A stretch of 64,000 nt of DNA from Schmidtea polychroa (lineage: Eukaryota). Position numbers and translations under genes: made by a program. Under the pieces are notes generated by a model. That model saw nothing but the letters and a program-made list of their open reading frames with translations. It searched no databases and was not told the DNA's origin. This document shows positions 37,088 through 62,017 of the stretch, piece by piece; within the stretch, counting starts at the first letter, position 1, and every line of letters starts with the position of its first letter. Location: contig CM097885.1 in assembly GCA_044892525.1 (NCBI GenBank), positions 7,752,001 to 7,816,000 on the forward strand, written 5' to 3'.

Positions 37088-40000
37088 TGTCCCGAGACAA
37101 TTTATTTACTCGGCTGGATACTACCATATTTCTTACAGCATTCACGAATATAAATACAAACATAATATATATTGCATAATATAAGACAAATATAATACGC
37201 ACACAACAAAGGAACCTCCTAACATAACTGGTGTCAGAAACAAAGCAAACACAACACGACACTCGCATTCGACGATTTTTGTCAATCACTACGCCTTTCA
37301 GCATACTTATTATAGAAGTATAAAGGATAGTGACTTTTTTGGCTGAACACAGTAAGCCATATCCTTGAACAATCTCAATTGTTTTAACACAGCAAGCAAT
37401 AAAAAAAGCATCAACAAATCAAATAATGGCATCAAATCAAACAAATCCAACAAATATTCCACAAATACCTAACAACTACGAAAATACTCAAACATCGGAA
37501 AGCATCAATTACTACTACAACCCTAACACCAGCACAGAAAACACACATACCATTAATTCAATAATCAACCCAAAAACAAATATCCCCAACTATTTCACTG
37601 ATGACAACGGAACAACGCAAAAATGGTTAGAATTCGCTAAACTAACCTTAACGCTATCTGGAGTCAATTCAATAAAATCCCTATGATCCAACATAATAGC
37701 GGCACTACCAAGCAACAAATTAAACGAAATCGCCGATCAAATTGATGAAATATCAAAAGACGACGACCCTTTTACAAAACTGTGTAACATACTGACCAAC
37801 AAAAACAAGGTCAACAGAAGGCAACTGCTAGAGTCATGCCTCAACAATACACAGTTAGGGGACAACAAGCCCACAGATTTCCTACGACAATTAAAACAAA
37901 AACTGGAGTATTTACAGCCAAACATAACAAACTCCGGTTCCAACGAATTGGTGAAGGAATTCTTCATGCGCGCTATGCCACCGGAAATCAGATGAATCTT
38001 AGCCGCTAGCAGCAATGCTGATGTCGAAACACTTGCTGACATAGCTGACAAAATAAACGAAGAAATTTACCCTACAATTTGTAGTACCCAAAACTACAAT
38101 AGAAATAAAGCAAATTACAACAACCAGACAAACAACAAAAATACCGAATCAAACGAAACAACAAACCAACTAATAAACACTTTGATTAGTAAATTCGACG
38201 AAATAATCGTAGAAAACAGACAAATAAAAGCAAAACTAGCCGAAATAAAAGAGAAATACAACAGGCAAAATTTCAATCCAAACGAAAACAGAGACCTATT
38301 CAACAGAAACAATTTAAATACAAGCCAACTATCAAATAATCATAGCAGACAAAATTATAATCGATCATCTGACGGAAACAACAGGCAGAACTACAGCCGC
38401 AGACAATCCACAAACAATGACTACAGAAACCGATCAAACTTCCCGAACCGATACAACAACTACCGAAACAACAGCCCAGAAAAAGAATCAAGAAGCGAGT
38501 TTATCAACAAAAACTACTGCTACTTCCACAACAAATTCGGCGACAAAGCATATAAATGCACAAAACCCTGTGAATATCACAAGATCGAACAGGAAAACTA
38601 AAACCGTCACTGTTGATAGCACCCACATTCAATGACAAAAACAATACATTTTTGTGCACACAAATAACACTGATTTTCTAATTGACACAGGCTCTGTAAT
38701 ATCACTACTACCCCACTAAATCTACAAAAACGCAAAAACAACAGAAAAATCAATGGCTCAAGCATAAAAACATACGGCCAACACACACTAACAATAAATT
38801 CACAAAAATACAATTGGTCATTCACAATCGCAGAAGTACAGCAATCAATAATAGGAGCTGATTTCCTAGCACACTACAACTTACTGGTGGACTGCAGAAA
38901 CAAAATATTAATTAAAAATCTCACAAAAGACAGAGAAACCAACAAGATTAAAATGACAAACACTGCAAAAGTAGACATCGGCGTGATACAAACAAGCACA
39001 CCAAATATTAAAACAATCAAAAGAACTGAACACGTACCCGAAATAACTACCCTTCTGACAAAATACAACAAACTCTGCGAATCAGTAACTTTCGACGGAA
39101 AATCAAATCATTCAACCGAGCACGCCATCATAACCAATGGAAACCCAGTACACTCAAAGGTCAGACAACTAGATCCACAAAAGACAAACATCACAAAAGA
39201 AATCTTCCAAGAACTACTGGAAAACAACATAGTCAGACATTCAAACTCTAAATGGTCTTCAGCACTGATGCTAAAAAAAGCTAATGGCGAATTGAAAGCT
39301 TGTGGTGATTACAGACTTCTGAATAAAATAACAGAACCAGACAGATACCCATTACCTATAATCAAAGACATAATAAACCAAATAAACGGCGCCAAATACT
39401 TCTCAAAAATAGATTTACAAAAAGCATATCATCAGATACCAATTAGAAAAGAAGACGTCAAAAAGACAGCAATAACAACACCGTTAGGAATGTTCGAGTA
39501 CAATAGAATGCCTTTCGGTTTACGAAACGCCGCAGCCACGTTCCAAGGATGCATGGACCAAACAATAAAAAAAAATAAAAACACAATCGCTTATCTGGAC
39601 GACATCCTAATATCAAGCCCAGACAAAGAAACACACCTAAAAGACGTCGAAAAAGTATTCGAAACGCTGAACAAAGCAAAATTGAAAATAAACACACAAA
39701 AATGTGAATTCATGAAAGCTGAAATAAACTTCCTTGGTCACACACTGAACGACAAAGGAACACAACCAATCGAAAATAAAATAAACAACATAAAAAATTA
39801 CAAACTGCCAACGAGCACAAGAGAATTGAGAAGATTTCTAGGAATTGTAAACTTTTACCATTCTTACATCCCAAACTGCAGCAAACTACTAGCCCCACTA
39901 AATGACATTATCAAAACAAAACGAAATGTCACAATATACTGGACACAACAACCGATACTTTCGAGAAAGCCAAAGAAAGTCTGTCAACGGGAACATTACT

Positions 40001-41674
40001 TGGTTACCCAGATCCAGAGTTAGACTACCAAAGAACAACAGACTGTTCAGGTTTTGCTATGGGCGCAACAATTTTCCAAGAAAACAAATACGGCAAACAA
40101 TCACTAGGATTCTTCTCTAAAAAACAAAAGTCACACCAAACAAGATATTCAACATTCGACAGAGAAGTCCTAGCAATACATGAAGCAATCAAACACTTCC
40201 AACATTTACTCGAAGGACGAAACTTCAAAATATTTACAGATCACAAACCGCTCACTAACGCAATCAAAATGAAGAATCCCTCACCAAGGCAGATTAGACA
40301 AATCAACTTCATTTCACAATTCAACTGCACAATAAACTGTGTAGCGGAAAATCAAACATAGCAGCTGATGCTCTATCAAGAAACGAAAGTGACATAAACT
40401 CCCTAGAATTCGAATTGTAATCGAATTGGATCAAATTAAATCCAAACAAAACGTAACAATTAACAAACTCCCCACTAAACACAGTTTGAAACTACAAGAA
40501 CTCAACAAGCACGACGTCTCCAACGAAAACAACAAACGAATATTACTCCCGTAGGAATTCCGCCAAAACTGTATCGAAAAGATACACATGATTAATCACC
40601 CGGGAAACAAAGTAACATTCGAACTAATACACAACAATTATATATGGCCTAACATGCGGAAAGACATCAAAAACTACGTCAAGAGTTGCCACAGCTGCCA
40701 ATTAAACAAAACAACAAAAAACTCAAAACTCAAAAAGTAAACTTCCCAAGCAGCGAAGTCTTCGAAACAATACACACAGATGTGGTAGGACCACTACCAC
40801 CAAACGACAACTACAAAAACCTGCTGACAATTATAGATAGGAAATCCAACTGGTTCGAAGCAATCCCAATAAAAGAAATCACCGCAAAAAATATCTGTGA
40901 AATGATTGAATTAAATTTGATAGCTCGTTATGGTCAACCGAAAACAATCATAACCGATCAAGGCAGACAATTCAAATCAGAAATGATCAAAATACTCTGC
41001 AACAAATACAACATCAAAAGGAACCGAACAACAGCTTACAACCCACAATCAAACGGAAAAATCGAACGGTTCCACAGAACATTAAAAGAAAGCGTAAGAA
41101 CAAAAGCCAATGTTCAAAATTGGTTAAATCATCTACCCATAATACTAATTGGACTGAGAAATAGTCCAAACTCAATAGATAATGAAAGTCCAGCATACAA
41201 GGTTTTCGGAAAAGCAACAAATCTACCATCACTCAAAGACAAAACAACAGATAACACAGAAACAAACAAACAAACTACTAACAATAACAATGGAAATACA
41301 GAAAAAAACTCAAAAGGAATTTTAAAAAGGAGACCGGACTCTGAATTGGATGGAAAAACAGTACTAACAACAGATTTCATCCTAATAAAAAAACGTTCAC
41401 AAAAGGTTTCGAATCCAAATACGAAGGTCCATTCAAACTCCTAGAAATCAACAAAAACGTCGCCACAATAATCAAAAACAACAACAAAATGAAAATAAAC
41501 ATAAGACGAATAAAACCCTATCACCTGAACGAAAACCCACAAAACAATCCACCAGAAAACAAAACACAAACAAAAACACAACCAATTCACAAAGACATCA
41601 CATTTAACCACAAAACTCAATCAAACAATAATCACACCCCTATACAAAAACGATACAGCGATTGCCTTAAATAA
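37088..41674 (+). mobile_element. Ty3/Gypsy LTR retrotransposon (CsRn1-like), near full-length internal region, pseudogenised
   Basis: LTR-like end ..TAACA at 37224 and PBS TGGTGTCAGAA at 37229; gag 37426-38601 ending in CYFHNKFGDKAYKCTKPC (CHCC motif) and slippery GGAAAAC; protease FLIDTGS; RT YLDD; RNase H FTDHKPL; integrase HTDVVGP..TDQGRQF..IERFHR; several stops and frameshifts; no 3' LTR found. Confidence 0.93.
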
Positions 41675-42042: not shown

Positions 42043-45000
42043 TCATCCCCCTTCTTTAAATTCTTTAATCTTTTCAATATTCCTGATTAAAGACTTCCCA
42101 CTTTTATCTCTCAGCATATAACTGCGATCGTGTATTCGTTTTTTTACCGTGTATGGTCCTTCATATCTTTCTTGATCCTTGTTTCATATTTCTCGTTTGA
42201 TTAACACTTTGTCTCCAATATCCAACCTCCTTGCAGTTGTTGTTTCCTCATTTTGTCTTTTACTTTCAATTTTCAATGCGATATCGTTCCTGTTAATTCT
42301 ACTATCATTATACCATTTTGATCTATCAATTTTCCTACCAAAAATAATTTCAGCTGGGCTTACTCCCGTTGTTTTTTGAATGGTTGCGTTGAGTGTATAT
42401 TCTATATCTGGGATAAGGTCTGCCCAGTCTTTTGTATTTCCGTCTTTCAGCGATGCATTAATAAAATCTCTTATTGTCCGGAATTGTCTTTCGATTATAC
42501 CATTCGTATTATGATGATATGGACTCGAATACACTATCTCGAACCCTGCATTTTTGCTTATATTCTTTATGCTATTAGCTTCGAATGTTTTCCCGCAATC
42601 TACATGTAGTTCTTTGGGTGCCCCAAATTTTAGAATCCAGTTGTTTAACAATATCTTCCCAATTGTCTCTTCATCCTGTTTATTTATAGCTGTTAACGAG
42701 ATGTATTTGCTGTAATGGTCGATTATTGCGCAAATGTATCTTTTCCTGTTAAATGTTTCTTTCATTGGGCCACATATGTCCATATATATTTTCTCGAAGG
42801 GTTCGGATGCTTCAAGTACTTTTGGTTTCTCTTTCATCTTTGTAGTTACAACTTTAACTTTTTGGCACGATTCGCAATTTGATATTGTCGTTTTTACTTC
42901 CTTTATTAGATCTCTCATATCGAAATTTTTTTGTATGTATTTGATAACTTTGTCAACTCCAGCATGGCACAGTAATAGATGTGTTTTGTTAATCATTTCT
43001 CTTCTTTTGCTCTCTGGTATCCATATTCTTTTATCTTTGGTATAAATAATATTATCCTCTATTATAAACCTTCCACTCGTTTGCGTTCTTATTTTATTTT
43101 TAATCTCCTCTATTTCATCACTATTCATTTGCCATTCCTCTCCTTTGTCTTCCGTCATTATATTTAACATTCTGGTTTTCATTCTTCCCATTTTAGGATT
43201 ATCGTGTTCCATAAGACATTGTACACATGTTCCACACGTTTTCCTCGATAACATGTTTGCGTTTGTATGTAGTGTACCCTTTCTAAATTCCATTTTTATA
43301 TCAAGGCTACTTAAATAGTTTATCCAGGTCTGGAATTGAGCTGTAATTGGCTTCTTCGAGGTTAGCATAAATGTTATTGCTTTATGATCTGTACGTAGTG
43401 TAAATCTTTTCCCATATAAATAGTGATTGAAATGCCGACAAAAATAATATATAGCCAGGAGTTCCTTTCTTGTAATACAATAGCCTCTTTCGTGGTCATT
43501 CATCGCATGTGAGCCATAAGCGATAACTTGCTCATATCCCATGTCATTCTTCTGTGATAAGACTGCGCCGATTGTATCGAAACTTGCATCCGTATCCAGT
43601 ATGAATTCTTTCTTAAAATCAGGAAATACCAAAATCGGTGCGGTTATTAATGCCAACTTCATATTCTCAAAAGCCTGCTCACAATTTTCATTCCATATTA
43701 TTTTGTCGCTATTTTTACCACATATACTCTCTAAAGCTCTTGCCTTCTTTGCGCATTCTTTAATAAATTTTCGATAATAGTTGCAAATACCCAAGAAACT
43801 CCTTAAATTTTTCACACATTTCGGCCTTTGAAATGATTGAATAGCTTCAATTTTGCTCTGATCCGTTTGGATGCCGTCTCTATTTATAATATGGCCTAAG
43901 AATTTCATTTCGCTTTTCAGTATTTGACATTTTTCAGGATTAATTCTTAGTTTAGCTTCTGCGATTTTCTGCAATACTCTTTCTAGCAGTTTATAGTGTT
44001 CTTCCATTGTGTTAGTAAAAATTAATATATCGTCCAGATAAACCATTACCCCGTCTTTCCATAAATCCTTTAATATCTTCGTCATGAGCTCTTGAAAAGT
44101 TCCTGGTGCTGCCGCGATGCCAAACGGCATTCGGTAGAAACAGAATTGTCCCTCTTTCGTTGAAAAAGCTGTTTTCTCCTGTGAATCTCTATCCAACTTC
44201 ACCTGATAGTATGCGTTTCCAAGGTCAATAGAACTAAAATATCTAGTACCATGCAAAGCATCTAAGATCTCGTCAACGTTAGGCATCGGGAACGCTTGTC
44301 TTTCAGTAATTTTGTTAAGTTGTCTAAAGTCCAAACAGAGTCTGATATCCTTCTTTTCCTTTTTCCAAACGCACACTAAAGGTGTATTCCAAGGTGAATT
44401 ACACTTCCTTATAATATTATTATCCTCCAGATTTTTAATGGCCATGTTTATTTTCTCTTCCAAGTTTATAGGCTGTCTTCTGGGCTTTATCATTATTGGT
44501 CCGCCATTTGTTTCAATTTTATGTTGAATTAAATCAGTGCATCCAACATCCCACTTGTCAGCCATGAAAACACATTTATTTCTCTTAATAATTTCTACAA
44601 GCAATTTATCTTCTTTTACTTTCAACTTCTCTATCGCATGTTGGAATCTTTCTTCATTTGTAATATTCCTCCCAAATTTAGCATCAATTTCACATATACG
44701 TTCGTTAGATATCATTTCACCTTCTTGAATCCATCTTAATTCAATACCGAATTGTTTCTGTAATTCTATACCCCCAATAACATCTGGGACAATGTTTTGT
44801 ACGACGGTAAAGGTCACTATTTTTGTTAGCTTCCCTATCTTTACCTCAATTTGAACTTTTCCTATAGTCTCCAATTTACTGTCATTTGCACACCTTAGCA
44901 TTTCATCTGTTTTTATTATCTCGACTTTGTCCAATTTATCCAGTACTGCTTTAGACATTACATTAACTCGTGCTCCTGTATCTAACAGACACTCGATTCT

Positions 45001-45255
45001 GCGGCCCTGAATTTCAAGTGTTATACTTGGTCTACCTTGCATTTTATGATAAGTCATACGAGGTCCTTTCCATTCGTCTTTCGTAAATATATTTTGTTCC
45101 ACTTTGTTCTTTATACTATTGGAAATTTCATTAATCCACTCAATCTTATCTTCATTCATATCAAATGACTTTTTTAGGAAACTATATACTTTTTCTCCTG
45201 TTCTTTCATCGCTACACATTATTTTGCTGTTTCCATTTCTATGATCTATACTGCT
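42043..45255 (-). mobile_element. Ty3/Gypsy pol (PR-RT-RH-INT), 5'-truncated with no gag, one premature stop at 42184-42186
   Basis: LLDTGA, YLDD, TDASF..TDHKA, H-x-C2 zinc motif, MDICGP..VDCG..IERQFR; frame continues past the TGA to YEGPY..KEGG*; PPT AAAGAAGGGGGA (42057-42046) followed by TG (3' LTR start at 42045). Confidence 0.95.
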
Positions 45256-45369
45256 ACTTTTATAAACATTAAAATTAGTTTTATCATCCATATTATTACA
45301 TAAATCTTTACTAAAAATATTAAAATTATCTACACTATTCAAATTATTTACATTATTCAAATTATTTAC

Positions 45370-46452: not shown

Positions 46453-46914
46453 TTAAATGTATATAGTATGATACTCATTAATATACATTGAACATGCTTT
46501 ACATTTGCGAACATTTGAATCATGGCATTTAGAACATACAATTACATGTCCGCAAGGTAAAAACAAAACCGATACTTGATTTTCTTTACAAATGTAACAA
46601 GTTAAATACATTTTCCTACCATCATTGAGTTTTTTCCTTAGCTTATTTTCAATCAATTCGGATTTCGATATCCATTCATAAATCAATCTACTACTATATC
46701 CTGGTTCCAGCCTTAAATCCATACAATTCCAAAAGCATTCATTCAATGAATCATTATCTACTATTGCTTTGTCTAAATGCATCAAATAAATCGATAACTT
46801 CAAAATGCATTTATTGTAATTAAATAAATCAATCAAATATCCAATGGAGGAATGTTTGAAAATTTCTAAAATTTTTATGGTTTCCTTTTCAGTGAGAGTA
46901 TCATAATTGTTCAT
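46453..46914 (-). CDS. IAP-type C3HC4 RING protein (putative E3 ligase), no BIR visible
   Basis: C-terminal CYICKENQVSVLFLPCGHVIVCSKC..CKAC..IYI follows the IAP RING consensus including the terminal aromatic residue. Confidence 0.85.
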   Translation of the reverse strand: MNNYDTLTEKETIKILEIFKHSSIGYLIDLFNYNKCILKLSIYLMHLDKAIVDNDSLNECFWNCMDLRLEPGYSSRLIYEWISKSELIENKLRKKLNDGRKMYLTCYICKENQVSVLFLPCGHVIVCSKCHDSNVRKCKACSMYINEYHTIYI

Positions 46915-46970: not shown

Positions 46971-47370
46971 ATGTCGGAAAAAGGTAAAATATGAATTTTA
47001 TGTTTATTAATTCTTTTTTTTTTTTTTTTTTTTTTATTTAGCATATATAATCAATTTTTTGATTGAAAAATTAGAGGAAATATCTAATGTAAAAATTAGA
47101 GAATTTATGAATGTTCCAGAGAAATTAAAATGGCCGTATTCAGACGATGAAATTAATGAAGATGATATGTCATATGAATCTGAAAATATTTCCCAGCAAG
47201 AAGATGAATATACTGATTTGCCTAGTGAAGAACTTAAGTCATGTATTGAGAATTCTACAACAGATAAATTACCAAATGAATCTAAACAAGAAGATGAATC
47301 TATTGTTTTTACTAATTGTATTGATCATATTGTTGAAAATATAATGAAAAGAGATTGTATTGAAGATTAA
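46971..47370 (+). CDS. Acidic orphan protein, spliced (exons 46971-46983, 47042-47370)
   Basis: MSEK|AYIINFLIEKLEEIS..CIDHIVENIMK; homolog with the same phase-1 intron at 60116-60436. Confidence 0.78.
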
Positions 47371-48239: not shown

Positions 48240-48626
48240 TTACAACAATACATTTTTTCGCAATTCCACAAGTAATGCATGAATTATTTCTCGTTTCTGT
48301 AGATTTACAAAACATGTACAACTATCATCCCCACAAGTATTCTGCATATTATTTTTACAAAAATCACAATTTTCAACATCATCGGTATAACATGTAATCG
48401 TAGCATGATCCATATGAATTAAATCTATTACATTTATTCCAGTTATTTCATAAATTTTGTAAAACACAACTTCTGGAGCACAATACATTAAGGAATTGTT
48501 CAAATTCGGATAAAAATCTTCAATTTTATCAATCAAAATTTTTAGTATAGTTTCTAAACAAAAATCAGTAAATTTAAAATAAAAACAGTTACCTTCATGT
48601 TCAATCATTGTTGAATAAATATTCAA
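48240..48626 (-). CDS. Cys-rich orphan gene Y
   Basis: FYPNLN..IYEITGINVIDLI..CTC..ELR aligns with YYPELN..VYNQTRIWIFDII..CSC..TLR at 58898-59307. Confidence 0.7.
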   Translation of the reverse strand: MNIYSTMIEHEGNCFYFKFTDFCLETILKILIDKIEDFYPNLNNSLMYCAPEVVFYKIYEITGINVIDLIHMDHATITCYTDDVENCDFCKNNMQNTCGDDSCTCFVNLQKREIIHALLVELRKNVLL

Positions 48627-49113
48627 GCAAATCCTCGTTACTTATATTTGAAGAAATTGTTAAAGATCCAATCAAATCCTTTACATCGTTTATAATTCCT
48701 TCAACAATAGTATGAAAATCTAAATTTTTAATACCTAGTACAACTATTTTACCACTCGAAAATATATTTACACATAGTGGATTATATTTTGTATAACGCA
48801 GAGCGGGAAATAATTCAGGCTCATATATACAATCTCCATCTAATAACTTTGCTAAATTATTCAAATTAATAGATTGTTCAACCTTGGTAGCTATAGTAAG
48901 ACTTTGAACTTGAATATCTTTGATATTATATTGCAAATTCTCGAATTCGATAGGCTTCTTACAACCCATTATACGACATTTACCATTTTTGAAAAATATT
49001 ATAGTATATTTTCCAGTTTTGTCAACATATTGTTGTGGTTTACACTTGGGGAAATTCATCATACCAACAGTTTCCAAAGACACACGACCTCTATAATTAA
49101 TATTTGTCAACAT
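48601..49113 (-). CDS. TATA-binding protein (TBP)-like, arm A
   Basis: Two TBP repeats: IFFKNGKCRIMGCK and INLNNLA..YEPELFPALRY..P..VNIFSSGKIVVLGIK. Confidence 0.9.
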   Translation of the reverse strand: MLTNINYRGRVSLETVGMMNFPKCKPQQYVDKTGKYTIIFFKNGKCRIMGCKKPIEFENLQYNIKDIQVQSLTIATKVEQSINLNNLAKLLDGDCIYEPELFPALRYTKYNPLCVNIFSSGKIVVLGIKNLDFHTIVEGIINDVKDLIGSLTISSNISNEDLLEYLFNND

Positions 49114-49138
49114 TTCTACTGAATATTTAAAAAATCAA

Positions 49139-49175
<37 letters not shown>

Positions 49176-49247
49176 ATATTATAGAGTAATTAAATCAATT
49201 TATTTTTTACGATATAAACAAAATTAATTTTTAAATAAATATTAAAA

Positions 49248-49874
49248 ATGGAACTAAGAAATGATGCTGTATATCAAATAGTCGGACCAAGTGGTAGCGG
49301 CAAAACTTTGTTTGTTTGCAAATTACTAAAATCACATTTATTTGAATCAAAATTTAACAAAATGTATTGGCATCGAGGTGCTGATCAAGAACACGGATTG
49401 ACTCAATCAAGTTTCTGTAAATTGAAAAATATGAAAATAGTAGAGGGATTTGATAAAAATTGGTCCAGTAGACTAAAGAAGGGGGATGTCATAATTATTG
49501 ATGACTTGTATCAAGAAGCTAATAAAGAAAAGAATTTCAATAATTTATTTACCAAAATCAGTAGACACGTTGGTGTAACTGTTATTTTTATAACTCAAAA
49601 TCTATTTCATCAAGGTGGTGCACATCGAACACGTAATTTAAATGTACAATATTAAGTTATTTTCAAGAATCCTAGAGATGCAACAGTGATTGATTTTCTT
49701 GCACGTCAAGCACATCCTAACAATCGTAATTTTCTTATCAGTGCATTTCAAGATGCTACAAAAATACCTCATGGATATATATTTCTTGATTTCACACAAC
49801 AATGTCCCGATGATTTACGAGTAAAAACAGATATTTTCAACCCAAAAGGTGCCATGGTTTATAAACAAAGTTGA
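49248..49874 (+). pseudogene. A32/FtsK-like packaging ATPase, arm A, in-frame TAA at 49653-49655
   Basis: Walker A GPSGSGKT, Walker B IIIDD, ITQNLF; collinear with the intact copy at 57567-58205. Confidence 0.93.
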
Positions 49875-50028
49875 ATAATAATGTTTCTAATAATGTTTCT
49901 AAAAGCAAGGGTGAAAAATATTAGGAAATTAAGAAAAAGTATTAAAAAGAGTATTAAAGTTCAAAAGGTTCCACCAACAACTAGTTATATACCATCTAAA
50001 AAAACTTGTAACTGAAAATTTCTCTGCA

Positions 50029-50427
50029 ATGAATCTTATTTCGAAAAATCCTAAACCTAAACGTGAAACACGTAAAACCCGTAAAGCCGGTAAAAAAGTA
50101 ATTAAAAATCATCGCAGTTTTCCATTTTTTAATGCATTGTTAAAGGCCCCGAGTATGAAAAGAATGAATATATTGCAATCATTCCCAAATTTTGTTGTCG
50201 ATGATTTACTCAATATTATACTTAAAGTAGTCAAAGGCAAAATTAAAATCAGTAAATCAAAAAAGCATTTTTTGAGCAAACATAGGAAACCTTTGTTATC
50301 ATTAGTAAATAATAAAAATCGTAAGCAAATGAGGAAAATTATATATAAACAACAAGGTGGATTTATTGGTGCATTGATACCTCTGGCATTATCATTATTA
50401 GGTGGAGTTGTAGGAAATCAATCATAA
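50029..50427 (+). CDS. Basic core protein with adenovirus pX-like C-terminus (N-terminus from ~49881 frameshifted)
   Basis: Lys-rich; QQGG|FIGALIPLALSLLGG resembles the adenain cleavage site and hydrophobic tail of pX. Confidence 0.7.
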   Translation: MNLISKNPKPKRETRKTRKAGKKVIKNHRSFPFFNALLKAPSMKRMNILQSFPNFVVDDLLNIILKVVKGKIKISKSKKHFLSKHRKPLLSLVNNKNRKQMRKIIYKQQGGFIGALIPLALSLLGGVVGNQS

Positions 50428-50430
50428 ACA

Positions 50431-50658
50431 ATGGGTGCTAATCCTTCATTACCTAATTTAAATTTAAATTTTAAATCTTCTTGCTGTAATGGAGAAGATT
50501 TGGACGGACCCAGAAGACGAAGCCGGTTTCGGTGGAGTGGCAAAATTAAAGAAAAGAGTTCCGAATTCGAAAAAAGAAACCTAGAAGTGGTTATCAGATC
50601 AGCTTGCGTACAGTTTGAACAAACCAATGCGGAAAAGATTTCCAACAAGAGCCTATAA
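50431..50658 (+). CDS. Small putatively myristoylated/palmitoylated protein overprinted on the integrase start
   Basis: MGANPS (MGxxxS) and SSCC; same length, start and stop in arm B (57055-56828). Confidence 0.55.
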   Translation: MGANPSLPNLNLNFKSSCCNGEDLDGPRRRSRFRWSGKIKEKSSEFEKRNLEVVIRSACVQFEQTNAEKISNKSL

Positions 50659-50876
50659 AACATTTGGTATTGACGATTTATGGCAAATGGATTTGATGGA
50701 GATGATACCCTATTCGAAAATTAACAATGGGAATAAATATATTTTAACATGTATTAATGTATACAGCAGGTTTGCACGAGCAATACCAGTCAAGGCAAAA
50801 TCTGCAGATGAAATGTCCAAGGCAATTAATATTTTATTTAAAGATGGACATCCTAATAACTTGCAAACAGATTTGG

Positions 50877-50932
<56 letters not shown>

Positions 50933-51562
50933 TTAGGTAAAGAATTCTACAATAGCAAAGTTAAGCTAATCCTCGATAAACTGAAAATAAATCACTACTC
51001 GGTACATTCTCAATACAAAGCTGCCCATGTTGAAAGATTTAATCGAACGTTGAGAGATAGATTAAAGAAATTGTTCGTGCATCAAGGTAATAAAAAATGG
51101 GTAAATGCTTTACCGAAAATAATAACAAGTTATAATCATTCATCACATCGAGGACTGAATGGATTAAGACCGGTTGATATTACATCAAAAACATTCTATT
51201 CTAAGAAATCTGTAAAAATTGCAAAACCTAAATATAAAGTCGGTGATCATGTTAGAATTAGTAAAATTAGTGCATCACCATTTATTAAAAATTTTGATAC
51301 AAATTGGAGTGATGAAGTCTTTGTAATTTCAAAAATAAATACTAAACAGAATCCTGTAATGTATGTCATCAAAGACAGTGATAATAATATTGTACAAGGG
51401 AAATTTTATGAGCAGGAATTACAAGTCATTCCTCCTCCAAAGGTATTTAGAATTCAAAAAATATTGAAAACTAAAAAGGTCGGCAAGGATAAACAATACT
51501 ATGTCAAATGGCATGGTTATCAAAACCCGTCATGGATATCAGCAAAGGACCTAGTAAAGTGA
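50489..51562 (+). pseudogene. Polinton retroviral-like integrase with chromodomain, arm A; intron 50877-50936; premature TAG at 50582-50584
   Basis: WQMDL..QTDLG|KEF..HVERFNRTL (DDE) and C-terminal IQKIL..YYVKWHGY..SWI chromodomain. Confidence 0.93.
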
Positions 51563-52575
51563 ATTTTTATACTATTTTACCGAGCAATAGTTGCCCATTA
51601 ATTCATCCAGACAATCAAGCCAGTAAATTTATGGTCAATCTCCAGAATCCGATTTCTTTAAATGGTGACTGGGAAGTTGCACTGCAAGATTTTACATTCG
51701 TGTACAACACATTCCCATTTTATAGTCAATGTAAGATTGATTTCAAAAGGAATATTGTGAAAACATGTAGCGGTATCTTTATTATCAGTAATTATGATAA
51801 AACATATCATATTCCAAATCAGATATTAGATCAGCACTGCTCTATGTTTTACAAGGATGGATTAAATATCAGTTGTGATTTTAAACCATTTACAATAACA
51901 TTCGAATATATTGAAGATGCCAAACGATTGGGTTGCAATAAGTTGAAAAATGAAGTTATGGAAACCGAATATTTATTACGCTTTAATCTATTTGAAGCAA
52001 ACAGTGTAATGAGAGAAGAAATCAAAATATCTGTGTCGTATAATAATGAAGTTGAAGAATCATTCACCTTTGCTGACGAATTATATATTGATAAACTTGA
52101 TGTGTTACTTAAATATTTAAAGTACAATTGTTCACACATATTTAAAAGTTTGGACATTGTGAAAGATCTGTTATTTACATTCAGTTTGAATGATGACATT
52201 TGCGAAGTTACATTTGATAAAAATTTGACAAATACACTTGGATTAGAGAAGCAGCAATATCGGGAAAAATCGGCTGGTATACGTAAACCAAGAATACTTG
52301 AACATCATCAACAAATGTTCATATATACTAATATTATTGAGCCTATTATTGTTGGTGATTCCAGTGTTCCTCTTTTGAAATCGGTATGGATTGGAAAATA
52401 TGAACATGATGAAGTTGTCAATATAAATATCGATAATCCCATGTATTTACCAATAGTAAGTTCATGTATAAACAATATAGAAATAAATATTCGTGATGAT
52501 AGTGGAAAACTTATAAACTTTCCAAAAGGTTCAAAAACTCATTTGACATTACATTTTCGTAAAGTAGATGGCTAA
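51508..52575 (+). CDS. Minor capsid protein (penton), arm A
   Basis: FYTILPSNS..F.VNLQNPISLNGDWEVAL and IEINIRDDSG..LTLHFR, typical of Polinton pentons. Confidence 0.85.
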   Translation: MAWLSKPVMDISKGPSKVNFYTILPSNSCPLIHPDNQASKFMVNLQNPISLNGDWEVALQDFTFVYNTFPFYSQCKIDFKRNIVKTCSGIFIISNYDKTYHIPNQILDQHCSMFYKDGLNISCDFKPFTITFEYIEDAKRLGCNKLKNEVMETEYLLRFNLFEANSVMREEIKISVSYNNEVEESFTFADELYIDKLDVLLKYLKYNCSHIFKSLDIVKDLLFTFSLNDDICEVTFDKNLTNTLGLEKQQYREKSAGIRKPRILEHHQQMFIYTNIIEPIIVGDSSVPLLKSVWIGKYEHDEVVNINIDNPMYLPIVSSCINNIEINIRDDSGKLINFPKGSKTHLTLHFRKVDG

Positions 52576-52936
52576 TTCTGATATTATTAGTATGTATAGT
52601 GATAGCCAATCTGGCGGTGAATTACCATATTTTATTGGTAAACAGTACGGATCGGGATGGTTGAGAACAATTGGTAGATTTGCATTGCCTATTCTTAAAC
52701 GTATTGGTAGTTTTGGTATGAAAACTGCAAAAGATGTTATTATGAATGAACAGAAAATATTACCATCTCTAAAATCAAATGCTTTAGCTGAATTAGGGAA
52801 AGTTTTACCCGGGGTTGCAGGTATGTTTCAAAAAGAAAAACCTCCAGCTCCAGCTCCAGCTCCAAAACGTAAAAGACATGGAATATCACGTATAAACAAA
52901 CGAATGAAAGGACATGGAACTATATTTGCAAAATGA
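52568..52936 (+). CDS. pVI-like virion protein with amphipathic helix
   Basis: QSGG and QYGSG protease-type sites followed by WLRTIGRFALPILKRIG; lies between penton and major capsid. Confidence 0.65.
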   Translation: MANSDIISMYSDSQSGGELPYFIGKQYGSGWLRTIGRFALPILKRIGSFGMKTAKDVIMNEQKILPSLKSNALAELGKVLPGVAGMFQKEKPPAPAPAPKRKRHGISRINKRMKGHGTIFAK

Positions 52937-54156
52937 TTTGTGGTAAATCTGAATTATGCATATTTGATAGACCATCGCCCCAGGCTGTAATAGAATTTGG
53001 GGCATTTGAGGAAGTTTTTCCTATGAATTCAATTACCGATAGTAGAAATGATGTAGAATTTTACATCAATGGTTCTCAAACAGAATATTTAGATTTGAAT
53101 GATACTTTATTGACTGTTCAAATCAAGGTTATAGATAAAGATAAAAAGGCTTTGGGTGATGCTGATGCTACAATACCTAATAATTTTTTGTTTCATACAC
53201 TTTTTAAAGATGCTATTCTTGGATTTAATAATATCAAGATTGAAGGTGGCAACAATACATATATCCACAAGGCGATAATAGAAACTATTTTAAATTATAA
53301 TACTGACACCAAAAATACATGTCTTACTCCTATGGGTTATGCATCAAGTGATGACGAACGGAAAAAATGGATTAAAGGCTCAAAGATTTTCACCATGTGT
53401 TCATCATTACAACTCGATTTTATGGATCAACCAAAATATTTGCTTCCAGGAGTTAATGTCCACATTCGATTGTAAAGATCCGATTCTGCATTAACTCTTA
53501 CTAGTGCTACAGGTGCACCAATATGTCAATTAGTTGATGCAAAATTATTAGTGAGAAGAGTTCGAGTAGACCCATCAGTATTAGCAGGTCATCAATTAGG
53601 TCTTAATTCTAAACATGCAATTTATCCTCTGAAAACAAAAGAAATTGTTTCATTTGCAATAGCCAAAGGTGCTTCATCATTCTATAAAGAACAGATATTT
53701 GGTGATAGAAGAATGCCTAATTTTATTCTGGTAACATTTCAAAGTGAAGCACAATATAATGGATCATATACTGCTTCCAGCTCAATTTTCAAAAACTTTG
53801 CTGTTACTTCATTAACTCTGTCGAAAAATACTGATTATCGAGAAACATATACTCAAGATTTCGACACTGATAATTACTGTTCTACATATATGCAAAGTAT
53901 TGTTAGAAATCTAGGATATTTAGATAAAAATTTGAATTGTGGAATAACTCTTGAAGAATTCAAAACAAAATATCCATTCTTTACATTTGTTTTAGCCCCT
54001 GATTTTGATTTAAATCAGAGTCAATTACCACAAAACGGTAATTTACGATTGGATATAAAGTTTGCGAGAGCCATTACAGAACCTGTGCATGTTATAATAT
54101 ATGGAGTATTTGAAAATGAAGTTCAAATTACTGCAAACAGGACCGTGCTGGTATAA
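52933..54156 (+). pseudogene. Double jelly-roll major capsid protein, in-frame TAA at 53473-53475
   Basis: KSELCIFDRPSPQ..YLDLNDTLL..QPKYLLPGV..GNLRLDIKF; the two ORFs are in the same frame. Confidence 0.9.
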
Positions 54157-54183
54157 ATGTATACAGAAATACAGAAAGTTGTC

Positions 54184-54559
54184 ATGGAGTAAGTTGTTTT
54201 TATACTGTTTAATTTATTAAAATAGTTCTGTTCAGGTTAATCGAATTGGAAAACAAATATTAGGAAATGAATTTTTAGGAGTTTTTCCTCTCGATAAAAT
54301 ACCATTTTTGAAAAATAATCAAGCCATAATCGTCAATACCCATTCATCTCATCTTGGCGGAGAGCATTGGATTGCAATCTATGTAAAACCAGATAAGATA
54401 CATGTATTCGATCCTATGGGTTTCTATTATCCTGCTTTATTGGTTTCGAAACTACAAACAATGGGCAAACCTATTGTATATAATAAAACAATGTATCAAC
54501 ACCCTTTAACTCGTACGTGCGGACAACATTGTTTAGGATGGCTTATGTCTATTAAATAA
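54184..54559 (+). CDS. Adenain-like cysteine protease, spliced (exons 54184-54188, 54226-54559)
   Basis: MD|SVQVNRIG..FLGVFPLD..IVNT..GEHW..FDPMG..Q..CGQHC; 37-nt GTAAGT..TAG intron restores the N-terminus. Confidence 0.88.
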
Positions 54560-54610
54560 TAAATGTTTTTATAAAAATGTGTTTTTATTATTTTATAATT
54601 ATTATTATGT

Positions 54611-54646
<36 letters not shown>

Positions 54647-54761
54647 TTTATAATTATTATTATGTTTTATATTATTACAATAATAACAAAGTCCGTCATG
54701 AACGGTGCATGCTCCGTGCATGATTAACAAAGGCATATTATCACGTTATAAACAATTGTAA

Positions 54762-54869
54762 TCCTATTGTTTTTAACCAACCTGATCCGTACTGTTTACC
54801 AATAAAATATGGTAATTCACCGCCAGATTGGCTATCACTATACATACTAATAATATCGGAATTAGCCAT
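54762..54869 (-). pseudogene. Truncated pVI-like gene, arm B
   Basis: MANSDIISMYSDSQSGGELPYFIGKQYGSGWLKTIG then unrelated sequence. Confidence 0.85.
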
Positions 54870-55874
54870 CTACTTTACGAAAATGTAGTGTCAAATGAGT
54901 TTTTGAGTCTTTTGGAAAGTTTATAAGTTTTCCACTATCGTCACGAATATTTATTTCTATATTGTTTATACATGAGCTTGAAATTGGTAAATACATGGGA
55001 TTATCTATATTTATATTGACAACTTCATCATGTTCATATTTTCCAATCCATACCGATTTCAAAAGAGGAACACTGGAATCACCAACAATAATAGGCTCAA
55101 TAATATTAGTATATATGAACATTTGTTGATGATGTTCAAGTATTCTTGGTTTACGTATACCAGCCGATTTTTCCCGATATTGCTGCTTCTCTAATCCAAG
55201 TGTATTTGTCAAATTTTTATCAAATGTAACTTCGCAAATGTCATCATTCAAACTGAATGTAAATAACAGATCTTTCACAATGTCCAAACTTTTAAATATG
55301 TGTGAACAATTGTACTTTAAATATTTAAGTAACACATCAAGTTTATCAATATATAATTCGTCAGCAAAGGTGAATGATTCTTCAACTTCATTATTATACG
55401 ACACAGATATTTTGATTTCTTCTCTCATTACACTGTTTGCTTCAAATAGATTAAAGCGTAATAAATATTCGGTTTCCATAACTTCATTTTTCAACTTATT
55501 GCAACCCAATCGTTTGGCATCTTCAATATATTCGAATGTTATTGTAAATGGTTTAAAATCACAACTGATATTTAATCCATCCTTGTAAAACATAGAGCAG
55601 TGCTGATCTAATATCTGATTTGGAATATGATATGTTTTATCATAATTACTGATAATAAAGATACCGCTACATGTTTTTATAGCATTCCTTTTGAAATCAA
55701 TCTTACATTGACTATAAAATGGGAATGTGTTGTACACGAATGTAAAATCTTGCAGTGCAACTTCCCAGTCCCCATTTAAAGAAATCGGATTCTGGAGATT
55801 GACCATAAATTTACTGGCTTGATTGTCTGGATGAATTAATGGGCAACTATTGCTTGGTAAAATAGTATAAAAAT

Positions 55875-56997
<1,123 letters not shown>

Positions 56998-57058
56998 TAC
57001 AACAAGAAGATTTAATATTAAATTTAATGTCTGGTAATGAAGGATTAGCACCCATTGT

Positions 57059-57553
57059 TTATGATCGACTTCCTATTATTCCACCTAATAATGATATTGC
57101 TAAAGGTATCAATGCACCGATAAATCCCCCTTGTTGTTTATATATAATTTTTCTCATTTGTTGACGATTTTTATTATTTACTAATGATAGCAAAGGTTTC
57201 CTATGTTTACTCAATAATTGCTTTTTAGATTTACTGATTTTAATCTTGCCTTTGACTACTTTAAGTATAATATCGAGTAAATCATCGACAACATAATTTG
57301 GAAAAGATTGTAAAATACTGTTTCTTTTCATACTGGGTGCTTTTAACAATGTATTGAAAAACGGGAAACTCCGATGATTTTTAACAACTTTTACTTTCTT
57401 AGTGGTTTTACTTTTAGGTTTAGGTTTAGGATTTTTCGAAATAAGATTCATTGCAGGAAAATTTTCTGTAATAAGTTCTTTAGATGGAGTATAACTAGTT
57501 GTTGGTGGAACTTTTGGTTGTTTTTTACTCGATATCCTTGTTTTTGAAAACAT
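57059..57553 (-). CDS. Basic pX-like core protein, arm B
   Basis: QQGGFIGALIPLAISLLGG tail; intact ORF. Confidence 0.72.
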   Translation of the reverse strand: MFSKTRISSKKQPKVPPTTSYTPSKELITENFPAMNLISKNPKPKPKSKTTKKVKVVKNHRSFPFFNTLLKAPSMKRNSILQSFPNYVVDDLLDIILKVVKGKIKISKSKKQLLSKHRKPLLSLVNNKNRQQMRKIIYKQQGGFIGALIPLAISLLGGIIGSRS

Positions 57554-57566
57554 GATTTATATGTTT

Positions 57567-58205
57567 TCAATTTTGTTTTGAACTTTGTTTATAAACCATG
57601 GCACCTTTTGGGTTGAAAATATCTGTTTTTACCCGTATATCATCAGGACATTGTTGTGTGAAATCGAGAAATATATACCCATGAGGTATTTTCGTAGCAT
57701 CTTGAAATGCATTGATAAGAAAATTACGGTTATTAGGGTATGCTTGTCGTCCAAGAAAATCAATGACAGTTGCATCTCTAGGATTCTTGAAAATAACTAG
57801 ATATTGTACATTTAAATTACGTGTTCGATGTGCCCCACCTTGATGAAATAAATTTTGTGTTATGAAAATAACTGTTACACCAACATGTCTGCTGATTTTT
57901 GTGAATAAATTATTAAAATCCTTTTCTTTATTGGCTTCTTGATACAAATCATCGATAATGATTACATCATCTTTCTTCAAACGACTTGACCAGTTTTTAT
58001 CAAAACCCTTTACTATTTTCATGTTTTTCAATTGACAGAAACTTGATTGTGTCAATCCATGTTCTTCATCGGCGCCCCTATGCCAATAAATATTGTTGAA
58101 TTTTGTTTTGAACAAATTTGATTTTAGTAATTTACAAACAAATAATGTTTTTCCGCTACCACTTGGACCAACGATTTGGTATACTGCATCATTTCGTAAT
58201 TCCAT
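57567..58205 (-). CDS. A32/FtsK-like packaging ATPase, arm B, intact
   Basis: GPSGSGKT, IIIDD, ITQNLF, FKNPRD, PHGYIFLD. Confidence 0.95.
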   Translation of the reverse strand: MELRNDAVYQIVGPSGSGKTLFVCKLLKSNLFKTKFNNIYWHRGADEEHGLTQSSFCQLKNMKIVKGFDKNWSSRLKKDDVIIIDDLYQEANKEKDFNNLFTKISRHVGVTVIFITQNLFHQGGAHRTRNLNVQYLVIFKNPRDATVIDFLGRQAYPNNRNFLINAFQDATKIPHGYIFLDFTQQCPDDIRVKTDIFNPKGAMVYKQSSKQN

Positions 58206-58311
58206 TTTTTAAATTTAAACTATATATAATTATTGTTTATATTGATAATTTAAATGAACTCCTTTTTAAAATAACTATATATAACAGAGTTTTTATAATT
58301 ATTTCATTAAA

Positions 58312-58728
58312 ATGCTTTCAAATATAAATTACAGGGCAAAAGCTGATGTATCAAAAATGGTATTTCCAATGGGGAAACCACAACAACTCATCAATAGAAG
58401 TAAAAAATATCCAATAATATATTTCAAAACTGGTAAATGTAGAATTATGGGGTGTAAGGAAATAATCAAAGCTAGTGAATATAATGTTTATGATTTAGAA
58501 ATACAATCGATAACCATAACTTCCGATATAGGTTTTTCTTGTAATTTAAATAAATTGGCTAAATTAATACCATGCTTTTACGAACCAGAATTATTTCCAG
58601 CTTTGAGATATATAAAATATAACCCTATGTGTGTAAATATATTCGCTAGCGGTAAGATAGTAATTCTTGGAATAAAAAATATTGATTACAAATGTATAGT
58701 TGATAATATCATATCTGAAATTAAATAA
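58312..58728 (+). CDS. TATA-binding protein (TBP)-like, arm B
   Basis: YFKTGKCRIMGCK and NLNKLA..YEPELFPALRY..NIFASGKIVILGIK. Confidence 0.9.
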   Translation: MLSNINYRAKADVSKMVFPMGKPQQLINRSKKYPIIYFKTGKCRIMGCKEIIKASEYNVYDLEIQSITITSDIGFSCNLNKLAKLIPCFYEPELFPALRYIKYNPMCVNIFASGKIVILGIKNIDYKCIVDNIISEIK

Positions 58729-58897
58729 ATAATTGAAGGAAATGAATTTTTAGATTTTTTATTATCACTTAATTAATTATTTATCATTACAAATTCAATG
58801 CAATTGAAATGCATGATTCTGATTGGTCGAAATCTAATTGGCTGATGATTATTTATAACAAAATGTTTTCGGTTTAGTTGTCATTTATTCAACAAAA

Positions 58898-59307
58898 ATG
58901 TACAACATACAAAGTTCCGCAATCACCTCAATGAAAGAGCATGCAAATTATGGTAATTTCAAATTTTTATTATTACATTAATATATATATATTTTACAGA
59001 TGAATATCAATCAATTATCTTGCAAAGATTATGCTTCTATTATCCAGAATTAAATGAAATTCTACAAGATAGAGATACAGCTATCATTCCGGATTTGGTA
59101 TACAACCAAACACGAATCTGGATATTTGATATAATAAACACTTTTCTATGGGATATCAAGATAGGAAGGGGGATGAAAGAAATGAAACCAGAGGCTCCTT
59201 GCATTTTCGGATGTAGCTGTTGCAATTTCCGTTATCAACAATATGTTGAATGGTGTTTGGTGAAGACTCTGAGAAATCACCACTCGAGTCAGATTGTATC
59301 AAAATAA
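58898..59307 (+). CDS. Cys-rich orphan gene Y, arm B, spliced (exons 58898-58952, 59000-59307)
   Basis: 47-nt GT-AG intron gives an ATG start in frame; similarity to 48240-48626. Confidence 0.68.
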
Positions 59308-59437
59308 ATTTTTATGTTGAATTGTTTTGTTTTTGTAAATCGAAATAATAGAAATAATAATAATAATAATAGTAATAGAAATAGTAATAATAATATAAGT
59401 AATAATAGTAATAAAAAACAATATTTATAATAAAAAC

Positions 59438-59528
59438 ATTAATGCAACATTAATGCAAATGACATGCAATTTAAACAAAGACATACAGCAATCTGATTGG
59501 TTGATAAACAATAGTCATAGGTATAAAA
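59438..59528 (+). promoter_or_regulatory. Putative promoter module: octamer, CCAAT box, TATA
   Basis: ATGCAAAT 59453-59460, CTGATTGG 59493-59500, TATAAAA 59522-59528, about 40 nt before ATG 59563; the octamer block is duplicated at about 60033-60072. Confidence 0.55.
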
Positions 59529-59562
59529 ACCCTGTACCATTTCATTTTAATCATAATTCACG

Positions 59563-59982
59563 ATGACAAAGAAAATTTCAAGCACTGAAAAGCCAAAAGT
59601 TGTTCCAGAACTTGTACAACCTGTTCAAATGTTCCACAACTATAAAATGTATTTTTTAAAAGAAGAAATCAATATGAAATTGGCGTCGCCGATCAAGCTA
59701 ATTCCAACTAAATTTCAATTCTTATCCGGCACGCTTTCAATGATAGATATTAAATCTATTGATGAGGTTTTCAAACGGTTGAATACGAATCTATCTTGTA
59801 ATCAACATGCCTGGTTCAACAACAGATATGCAAGATTTTATGATTCCTTTGATGAAATCGGTTTCAAAGAAAACGAAAATTGGTATATAACAATTGCAAT
59901 CCAAGGATATAAAGTAGATAATAATGATGTGTATTCTCCAATTTGGAAAATTATGTCTGCTAGACTTTCACAACTATTTTAA
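59563..59982 (+). CDS. Orphan gene X, arm B, intronless
   Basis: Intact 139-aa ORF; ITIAIQGYKV..SPIWKI shared with the arm A gene. Confidence 0.75.
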   Translation: MTKKISSTEKPKVVPELVQPVQMFHNYKMYFLKEEINMKLASPIKLIPTKFQFLSGTLSMIDIKSIDEVFKRLNTNLSCNQHAWFNNRYARFYDSFDEIGFKENENWYITIAIQGYKVDNNDVYSPIWKIMSARLSQLF

Positions 59983-60115
59983 TGTTATATTTAATAAATG
60001 TATTAGTCATATTTGTTTTTTCTCTTTATTAATTGCAACATTAATGCAAATGACATGCAAATTTAACAAAGAAAATCTATAAACAAACTTATAATATAGT
60101 TTTAAAGTGATGAAA

Positions 60116-60436
60116 ATGACTGCAGAAAAAGGTTAACATGATTAATTAAATACTGAATTATTTATTATTTAGAATTATTAATCAACTTTTTGTTGGAAAA
60201 AATTAGCAGAAATATCTGGTGTAAAAATTGAGGATATATTATCTGTTACAAATGCATTAAATATCGGCTGGGTAGTTGAGAGTCAAGATTCAAGATTTGA
60301 AGGAACCGATACTCAAGAAATTGATGACGAAATCTATGAACCTAAAGATAATATTACGAATGATTGTATTGATCATGTCGTTGAAAATATAATGAAATGT
60401 GGAGATGACGATTGCGAATGTGTTAATAAATTTTAA
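60116..60436 (+). CDS. Acidic orphan protein, arm B, spliced (intron 60132-60172), +1 A in a homopolymer near 60200
   Basis: MTAEK|ELLINFLLEK/LAEISGVKI..NDCIDHVVENIMK. Confidence 0.72.
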
Positions 60437-60480
60437 AATTGAATTATTTTCATTTAAATATACTATTAAAAACAATAACA

Positions 60481-61009
60481 TTAATTTTTATTCATATATC
60501 TACAGAAAATATACATTATAACAACTCCAGTTGTAAGTTTTATAAAGTTTTTCATTTTTCTTTTGATTTCATCAGTTTCTTTAAAATTGCAGGCCAGTTT
60601 ATTTAATACACCCCATCCGCCATTGGCTTCTATCCATGGGGTAAACTTGGACTTGATTATCTAGAAATGAATATTATTAAAATATAGATTATAAAAGAAA
60701 TCTTACTTCTAAAGACCACTGATAATAATGTTCTGAGTCATGTTGACCTTTTGCAATGATTATCTTCATGTAGGTGAATCCTACAATTATCCTTGTCCAT
60801 TTCATGTCTTCATCGAAAAGACACTGAAATATTCTATTGAAGTAATACTTCTTGGTTTCCAGGGATTCCATCTCCATCATCTGCTGATAATCGATATTTT
60901 CACCTTCAATGATTTGTTCGGTTCGATTGATCAGGAAATTGAGGCTGTCGACTATATTCGCGGTGACAATTCCGTTTAGAACATTTTCCATAAAATTTGG
61001 TTGCGACAT
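60481..61009 (-). CDS. Bcl-2 family protein, 160 aa, spliced (exons 61009-60707, 60660-60481)
   Basis: BH1-like LFDEDMKWTRIIVGF, BH2 PWIEANGGW, C-terminal hydrophobic anchor FIKLTTGVVIMYIFC plus RYMNKN; 46-nt GTAAG..TAG phase-0 intron. Confidence 0.88.
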
Positions 61010-61225
61010 TTCTAAATTAATTTAAAATATAATGTTTTATTTATACTAATACCATATGATTTTGATTGGTTGATAGACTATAAATGTAAAAGAAAGGTTT
61101 TGATTTGATACACCATAAAAACTGTATTGCTAATTATTATAACGAGTGTGTGCTAACACAATACTATAAATTTTATAATATTCGACTATGTTTTTTGTTA
61201 ACTATGTTTTGTGATAGAAATAATA

Positions 61226-61341
<116 letters not shown>

Positions 61342-61415
61342 TATGTTTTATTACATTGTTTAATAATACCCTTGCGAGTTGTTGAGCGCGACCAGTACCC
61401 TTGTTAGCAGTACCC

Positions 61416-61800
61416 ATAGGGGGACAGAATATTTTGTCGGATAAACTCGGAGTATATAGATTAATAATATATCGATGAGAACACTAACTTGTTGCGTGTG
61501 TGGACATTAATAATAATATTTTTATACATTGTGTGTGTGACCATAGGGGAACAGAATATTTTGTCTGAGTATTGTGTGTAATAATTTTATTTTATTTAAC
61601 CATCAAAATAAGTTTTTAAAATACCGCAACGTAATATATTTAATAATTAAAATTTTAAAATACCGCAACGTAATATATTTAATAATTAAAATTTCAAAAT
61701 ACCGCAACGTAATATATTTTTAAAATACCGCAACGTAATATAAAATTTAAAATACCGCAACGTAATATAAATTTTAAAATACCGCAACGTAATATAAATT
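61416..61800. repeat. Direct repeat arrays
   Basis: CATAGGGG(G/A)ACAGAATATTTTGTC x2; AAATACCGCAACGTAATATA x6 (about 61618-61797). Confidence 0.9.
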
Positions 61801-61857
61801 TAAAAAAAAAATTAAAAAAAAAATAAATAAAAAAAAAAAAATAAAAAAAAAAAAAAA

Positions 61858-61975
61858 CCCTCCCCCCGGGGGTGGGGGTGGGGTATGACGTCATATGTCT
61901 TTGTGACGTCATCGATGACGTCATATGTCTTTGTGACGTCATCGATGACGTCATATGTCTTTGTTCCCGGGTCCA
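61858..61975. promoter_or_regulatory. GC-rich block with five CRE/ATF palindromes in a 30-bp tandem repeat
   Basis: TGACGTCA at 61886, 61904, 61916, 61934 and 61946; GGGGGTGGGGGTGGGG immediately before. Confidence 0.65.
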
Positions 61976-62017
61976 CACAATACCCTACTATCATAATTAT
62001 TTTATTACAATTTTAAA

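Follow-up and report, generated by a model that had tools for sequence, protein, structure and literature searches.

A spliced Bcl-2-family gene carried by a Maverick/Polinton of the planarian Schmidtea polychroa and its likely origin from host bcl2-1

Gene structure and splicing

The window, by which we mean the whole stretch of 64,000 nt of Schmidtea polychroa DNA that was analysed, carries on its minus strand a Bcl-2-family gene of two exons which specifies a product of 160 amino acids. Its parts are as follows.

60707..61009, minus strand: exon 1 of the Bcl-2 homolog, 101 codons; N-terminal helix as in host bcl2-1, BH1 KWTR, match to PF00452 at E=7e-4
60661..60706, minus strand: GT-AG intron of 46 nt, phase 0; contig joints in runs X1 and X2; site recurs in 24 of 34 loci
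60481..60660, minus strand: exon 2 of the Bcl-2 homolog, 59 codons plus stop; BH2 PWIEANGGW, a basic stretch and a predicted tail anchor

The original prediction held that the 106-amino acid ORF at 61009-60689 is exon 1 read through into an intron. The ORF is indeed present, and removal of the 46 nt between the GT donor at 60706 and the AG acceptor ending at 60661 gives an open frame of 160 amino acids with its stop at 60481, the longest among the nine GT-AG pairs that yield frames of more than 120 amino acids. Since shuffling of the DNA downstream also permitted frames of at least 160 amino acids in 14 of 500 trials, such frame rescue is weak evidence by itself. Splicing at 60707/60660, looked for in read contigs as had been proposed, was found as an exact skip of 46 nt (joint 60660/60707, ends CT..AC) in two of four runs, X1 and X2. 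Both are probably RNA and come from one study; their nature was guessed from the data rather than taken from a record, and the contigs carry neither strand nor expression level. Each run has one such contig, with a depth of 46 and a shorter side of 30 letters in X1, and a depth of 18.2 and a side of 39 letters in X2. Poly(A)/poly(T) loose ends lie near the ends of neighbouring genes in X2, and the X2 contig itself appears to derive from a variant copy since 18 letters at its 5' end are unmatched. Contigs of X3 and X6, runs of unrecorded kind, are continuous through the intron, and X1 also contains contigs which retain it.

The identical donor and acceptor position is found in 24 of 34 loci, the window included (23 GT-AG and one AT-AG), in introns of 30–60 nt that represent all three length classes modulo 3 and flank exons 1 with identities as low as 30%; the other ten loci were unmatched by the motif search for the intron site. 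When the read-through translation (X) was compared by BLASTP with the S. mediterranea bcl2-like protein the sole downstream gap was one of 15 residues, exactly the intron-derived stretch. The joint could be mimicked by a family A copy in the genome that lacks the intron, but none among the best 150 of 3980 matches spans both exons without a stop, and the intron is present in all five of the shortest-span matches fetched from the genome. The minus-strand gene of two exons and 160 amino acids with its 46-nt intron is confirmed as real.

Both exons are under purifying selection, with dN/dS values of 0.05–0.57 in all 14 computable of 22 exon comparisons, the remaining eight being saturated at silent sites. 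This bears upon the view that the main product is the unspliced 106-amino acid form, with BH1 only and a short hydrophobic end, or that intron retention serves as an off switch, the 160-amino acid form being minor. We hold that view to be very improbable. The intron-retaining contigs that stand beside the spliced one in X1 would fit it, but they may be DNA or pre-mRNA; the public gene calls P0002–P0004 are all short, but presumably come from gene callers which ignore introns; and in several subfamilies the translated intron is hydrophobic. Selection against amino acid changes in exon 2, together with an intron free to vary in length and frame, speaks against the view. Without splicing, BH2 and the tail would be lost.

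A second X1 joint, 60739/60976, skips 236 nt and has non-canonical ends. Together with loose X2 letters at 60745 it suggests transcripts of internally deleted copies which lack most of exon 1.

The Maverick/Polinton carrier

The surroundings of the gene are those of a virus-like element, of which the window holds the following parts.

54763..61989, minus strand: 7.2-kb part of the element in the window; joined head to head with a related element
61219..61989, no strand assigned: terminal inverted repeat (Maverick/Polinton), with the end of the element at 61989; the far end of six full copies matches this stretch
59563..59982, plus strand: conserved element gene of 139 amino acids, no Pfam family; neighbours the Bcl-2 gene in families with and without the intron
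58312..58728, plus strand: TBP-like gene of the element (PF00352, E=3.6e-15)
57567..58205, minus strand: packaging ATPase, A32-like (PF04665, Pox_A32, E=2e-7)
57059..57553, minus strand: basic element gene of 164 amino acids, without reliable family
55875..56997, minus strand: retroviral-type integrase (rve, E=2.8e-7); low end estimated from the inverted copy
56609-56501, minus strand: predicted ATT-repeat intron of 109 nt in the integrase
54862..55929, minus strand: minor capsid protein, probable from its position; resembles unnamed Preplasmiviricota proteins

The carrier is a young, multi-copy Maverick/Polinton of approximately 15.5 kb. All 40 scored DNA matches, distributed over four large contigs, are 99–100% identical, and the acceptor motif occurs in 269 exact copies in the genome versus none for a reversed control; the gene is borne by a mobile virus-like element, as had been claimed. 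The six full copies examined (ca. 15.5 kb) all have the same terminal repeats and 6-bp target duplications, and one Bcl-2 gene each. This is the first gene inside the terminal repeat, starting about 210 bases inward. In addition to the integrase and packaging ATPase seen in the window, the full copy L114 contains a protein-primed DNA polymerase B (PF03175, E=1.5e-29) and an adenain-type protease (L114:516-860; PF00770, E=1.6e-6, above the cut-off). No capsid protein was matched by Pfam. The capsid candidates have Atlas look-alikes at 0.97, with DJR-like domains in 10–17% of their members, and look-alikes among Preplasmiviricota proteins, recognition lying below threshold, and full copies may encode capsids. 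The window holds a truncated copy from which the half encoding major capsid, protease and polymerase is absent; as this copy retains 54763-61989 alone, it cannot be autonomous.

We rejected a location of the Bcl-2 gene inside a long terminal repeat: the inverted pairs L101/L102 and L103/L104 are rearranged head-to-head halves, and the full copies have a single gene. Such head-to-head inverted half elements recur (window 48701-58703 and the two pairs just mentioned) and form palindromes of 7–10 kb between two Bcl-2 genes. The Bcl-2 gene converges with a small acidic gene (60170-60430, plus strand), the 3' part of which is similar to the ORF at 47107-47370.

The integrase, too, has a predicted GT-AG intron, rich in ATT repeats and 60–118 nt long, in the window (56609-56501, minus strand, and 50877-50936, plus strand) and in L103, L105, L108, L113, L115, L117, L072 and L076. 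Its length is 3n+1 in all eight family A introns measured, so that the integrase of this family would need splicing, and 3n in three relatives. By eye, the protease of L114 and the gene downstream of it (L114:440-1610) seem to be split by several short GT-AG introns, and judging from this region introns may be general in the planarian Maverick family. Intact vertebrate Mavericks, which share terminal repeats, 6-bp target duplications and core genes with the planarian family, have been reported as intronless (Barreat and Katzourakis 2021, PMC8097293). The planarian family departs from them in its spliced accessory gene and its predicted frame-breaking integrase intron. Introns made by introners have been described in dinoflagellate Polinton-like elements (PMC11957031); Maverick, Polinton and Bcl go unmentioned in the part of PMC11410931 covered here.

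Family membership and relation to host bcl2-1

On the strength of its sequence the window gene is a member of the Bcl-2 family. The read-through translation X, a query that includes intron-derived residues, matches PF00452 over profile positions 6-100 at E=1.3e-6 and 29.4 bits, the cut-off being 31.4, and relatives exceed that cut-off. Among sequences of solved structures the best match is Bcl-2-related A1 (E=0.003), and a profile of 14 relatives matches Bcl-xL (E=1.3e-10). The relative L076 (61% identity in exon 1, intron read through) was modelled in place of the window protein and gave an all-helical prediction with a pLDDT of 75.8, four other models having values of 50–66. All 37 PDB matches listed for the L076 model belong to the Bcl-2 family (best TM 0.57–0.62, best E 0.002), and Foldseek returned none for it at E≤0.001. 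The profile matches and the L076 model support the predicted homology to Bcl-2.

Exon 2 supplies the BH2, PWIEANGGW, which removal of the intron had been said to add. A C-terminal tail is present as well, with basic residues on its flanks, but as an anchor it is weakly hydrophobic, its best 17-residue Kyte-Doolittle mean being 1.35 (relatives, 1.44–2.11). In BH1 the canonical NWGR is replaced by KWTR, with Thr at the position of the glycine, a residue that matters for partner binding in mammalian Bcl-2. This divergence is as predicted; its interpretation as a viral-type feature is not sustained, since the BH1 of the host bcl2-1 ortholog already reads RWSR, with Ser at the glycine position, and the change therefore predates capture. 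The Trp and Arg of BH1, the PW..NGGW of BH2 and the tail are retained across subfamilies under purifying selection.

A genome-wide search with the PF00452 profile, in which the best 150 of 909 candidates were scored, gave matches falling into host genes, Burro-like polyprotein domains, the spliced Maverick genes and an intronless Maverick family B. The Bcl-2 genes of family B lie beside the same TBP-like and 139-amino acid genes and are 48% identical to the host gene L061. The latter is single-copy, lies in 20 kb of retrieved sequence free of element genes, and specifies a protein 89% identical to S. mediterranea ACW83059 (ACW83059.1, FJ807655.1), which is bcl2-1 in the supplement of PMC4993586. 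So high an identity is what a planarian closely related to S. mediterranea would show. Judged by pairwise scores L061 is the nearest host gene to the Bcl-2 genes of the elements: the window protein scores 154 against this bcl2-1 ortholog, ≤90 against eight other host paralogs and 52–53 against Burro, and the element proteins as a whole score 149–233 against bcl2-1 and no higher than 97 with Burro or the remaining host genes. The window protein is colinear over its full length with S. mediterranea bcl2-1 once the intron is removed, and they share the spacing of W-S-x-E and PW..NGGW, a BH1 without glycine and a C-terminal tail. They differ in that bcl2-1 is a single-copy chromosomal gene, in being only 21% identical, and in the loop after the first helix, which is 15 residues shorter in the window protein. 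Relatives outside the genome were few (three proteins among four candidates, one among 14, and two representatives).

The prediction had called for a comparison with host Bcl-2 genes and their intron positions. L061 has one intron, a 2972-nt GT-AG intron located right after GGW, and a GT right after GGW (the donor side) is found in six of nine host paralogs; in the host paralogs examined, L061 included, there is no interruption at the intron site of the element. By contrast the element genes are continuous through GGW and, as the exon map bears out, the window gene is interrupted upstream of BH2, where it had been predicted. With the GGW intron present in the host gene, the element's intron site uninterrupted there, and the sister Maverick family intronless, the pattern is best read as capture through mRNA and subsequent intron gain: the gene was likely captured from host bcl2-1 by way of its mRNA, and the intron was likely gained later, once, inside the element. 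This agrees with the original proposal of capture via cDNA and later intron gain, although the direction and route of capture, and that the intron was acquired and not lost, are what we infer from these distributions. The subfamily series, intronless as well as spliced at 30–89% identity, is suited to the study of intron gain in a mobile element.

In an unrooted tree, from the alignment of which one near-duplicate row was dropped, the elements group with bcl2-1 (75/84) and family B with bcl2-1 (80/81), and the spliced group has modest support (64/28). A long branch leads to family A. The tree is compatible with one or two captures, which it does not distinguish. Its topology is also relevant to the idea that the element gene derives from the Bcl-2 domain of the Burro LTR retrotransposon, or that the host gene is itself a domesticated element gene, both of which we regard as very improbable. 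Burro-like polyproteins with a Bcl-2 domain do exist in the S. polychroa genome and would offer an RNA route, and in this tree without a root the AU test does not reject placing the elements together with Burro (p=0.20); yet the pairwise scores of the element proteins are 45–71 to Burro versus 149–233 to bcl2-1. Domestication is disfavoured because the GGW intron is common to the host gene and five other paralogs; had the host gene been domesticated from an element, this intron must have been acquired anew.

The Burro-like sequences are Gypsy polyproteins (L062, L063, L070, L077) in frames of up to ~3090 amino acids with a different Bcl-2 domain, and match published Burro; many copies of such domains are among the best 150 of the 909 PF00452 candidates. 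Seven near-identical Bcl-2 genes with a canonical NWGR form a cluster (L031–L037; G000:C4, 89.9–90.8 Mb) which lacks an intron after GGW in the one gene checked; it may have arisen by tandem expansion in the host or belong to another carrier. The Maverick and Burro copies inflate any count of Bcl-2 genes in planarian genomes.

Putative function and known systems

The reading we favour, with a probability of about 0.7, is that the two-exon gene was captured from bcl2-1 via mRNA and gained its intron later, and that its product is a membrane-anchored pro-survival protein which preserves the host cell during replication of the element. Tail anchoring and the binding of Bak/Bax-like and BH3-only proteins are established Bcl-2 biology. 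The spliced protein would be anchored by its tail in the mitochondrial outer membrane, where its BH1-BH2 groove could bind host Bak/Bax-like or BH3-only proteins and so delay death of the cell in which the element replicates and integrates. The element would benefit in that its linear DNA and integrase might otherwise trigger cell death. An anti-apoptotic activity is suggested by the likely descent from bcl2-1, RNAi of which results in total lysis of the worms (PMC4993586). Smed-Bcl2 has been termed pro-survival (PMC7586133). Planarian Polintons are targets of piRNAs and are de-silenced during normal differentiation (PMC8532177), which would provide a setting for expression of the element Bcl-2 gene.

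Given an identity of 21% to bcl2-1, function may have drifted. It is conceivable, if unlikely, that the origin and structure are as described and that the product no longer blocks mitochondrial apoptosis, acting instead as a bcl2-1 decoy or in autophagy or calcium release. The low identity and shortened loop would accord with this, as would the long branch to family A, the non-canonical BH1 and the weak tail, but purifying selection across subfamilies maintains the tail, the BH2 and, in BH1, the Trp and Arg, and the likely donor is the pro-survival paralog. Moreover, the canonical killer BH3 motif, L-x3-G-D, is not visible in the alignment.

Adenovirus E1B-19K and other viral Bcl-2 proteins are inhibitors of apoptosis, and like the planarian gene they represent a divergent Bcl-2 fold on a DNA virus or virus-like element. 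The parallel with E1B-19K drawn in the original prediction is acceptable as a functional analogy and not as kinship. There is no adenoviral family among the Pfam matches at E≤1, which consist of Bcl-2 and one chance family, nor an adenoviral chain among the best 60 of 82 PDB sequence matches. The top four viral fold matches are Bcl-2 models of iridovirus, gammaherpesvirus and ASFV, all weak (E 0.03–1.4). The nearest relative is the host bcl2-1 ortholog, and the planarian gene would represent an independent capture from a flatworm host.

The novelty implied for a Bcl-2 cargo was overstated. Starrett et al. (2021, PMC8502044) describe homologs of Bcl2 and IAP among the accessory genes of adintoviruses, the animal Polintons/Mavericks (section 3.2), and Bcl2 labels appear on three maps in their Supplementary Fig. 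S2. These homologs are, like the planarian gene, accessory cargo of Polintons. The text of Fig. S2 includes no flatworm, splicing is absent from the main text, and a donor is not traced in the parts of that paper covered here. A BCL2-like motif in the planarian Burro Gypsy elements is likewise on record (PMC6431247, citing Grohme et al. 2018). In Burro, also a planarian mobile element, the domain differs in lying within a giant retrotransposon polyprotein, in being intronless and in its distance in sequence from the Maverick gene. No spliced or bcl2-1-derived gene of planarian Mavericks was found in the freely accessible papers searched. New are a likely donor that can be traced and an intron probably acquired within the element. 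Anti-death cargo of Polintons was previously known from annotation only; with a likely donor whose knockdown is lethal, and RNAi being routine in planarians, suppression of apoptosis by such elements becomes testable in vivo.

A broader picture may be sketched, though we think it doubtful. The planarian Mavericks would be an intron-gaining lineage of Polinton viruses which took the essential bcl2-1 gene of the host, possibly twice, and whose integrase, too, now relies upon the host spliceosome. De-silencing of Polintons in differentiating cells would activate their spliced Bcl-2 genes, present in hundreds of copies, and these might contribute a real survival signal to cell turnover and regeneration. 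Burro would have captured the same pathway independently, which would mark cell death as a main line of defence of planarians against mobile DNA.

A RING-finger gene lies close to the end of a second Maverick family, at a position comparable to that of the Bcl-2 gene (window 46453-46914, minus strand; L119:3326-3784). It matches PF13920 (E=3.6e-10) and is reminiscent of the C-termini of IAPs. The window ORF at 62954 is the start of the polymerase of another copy of this RING-bearing family. The TBP-like gene (PF00352) occurs in both elements of the window, at 58312-58728 and 48601-49113, and also beside the Bcl-2 gene of the intronless family. Lastly, two ordinary Gypsy-type pol regions are located at 38953-41444 (plus strand) and 42184-45291 (minus strand) of the window.
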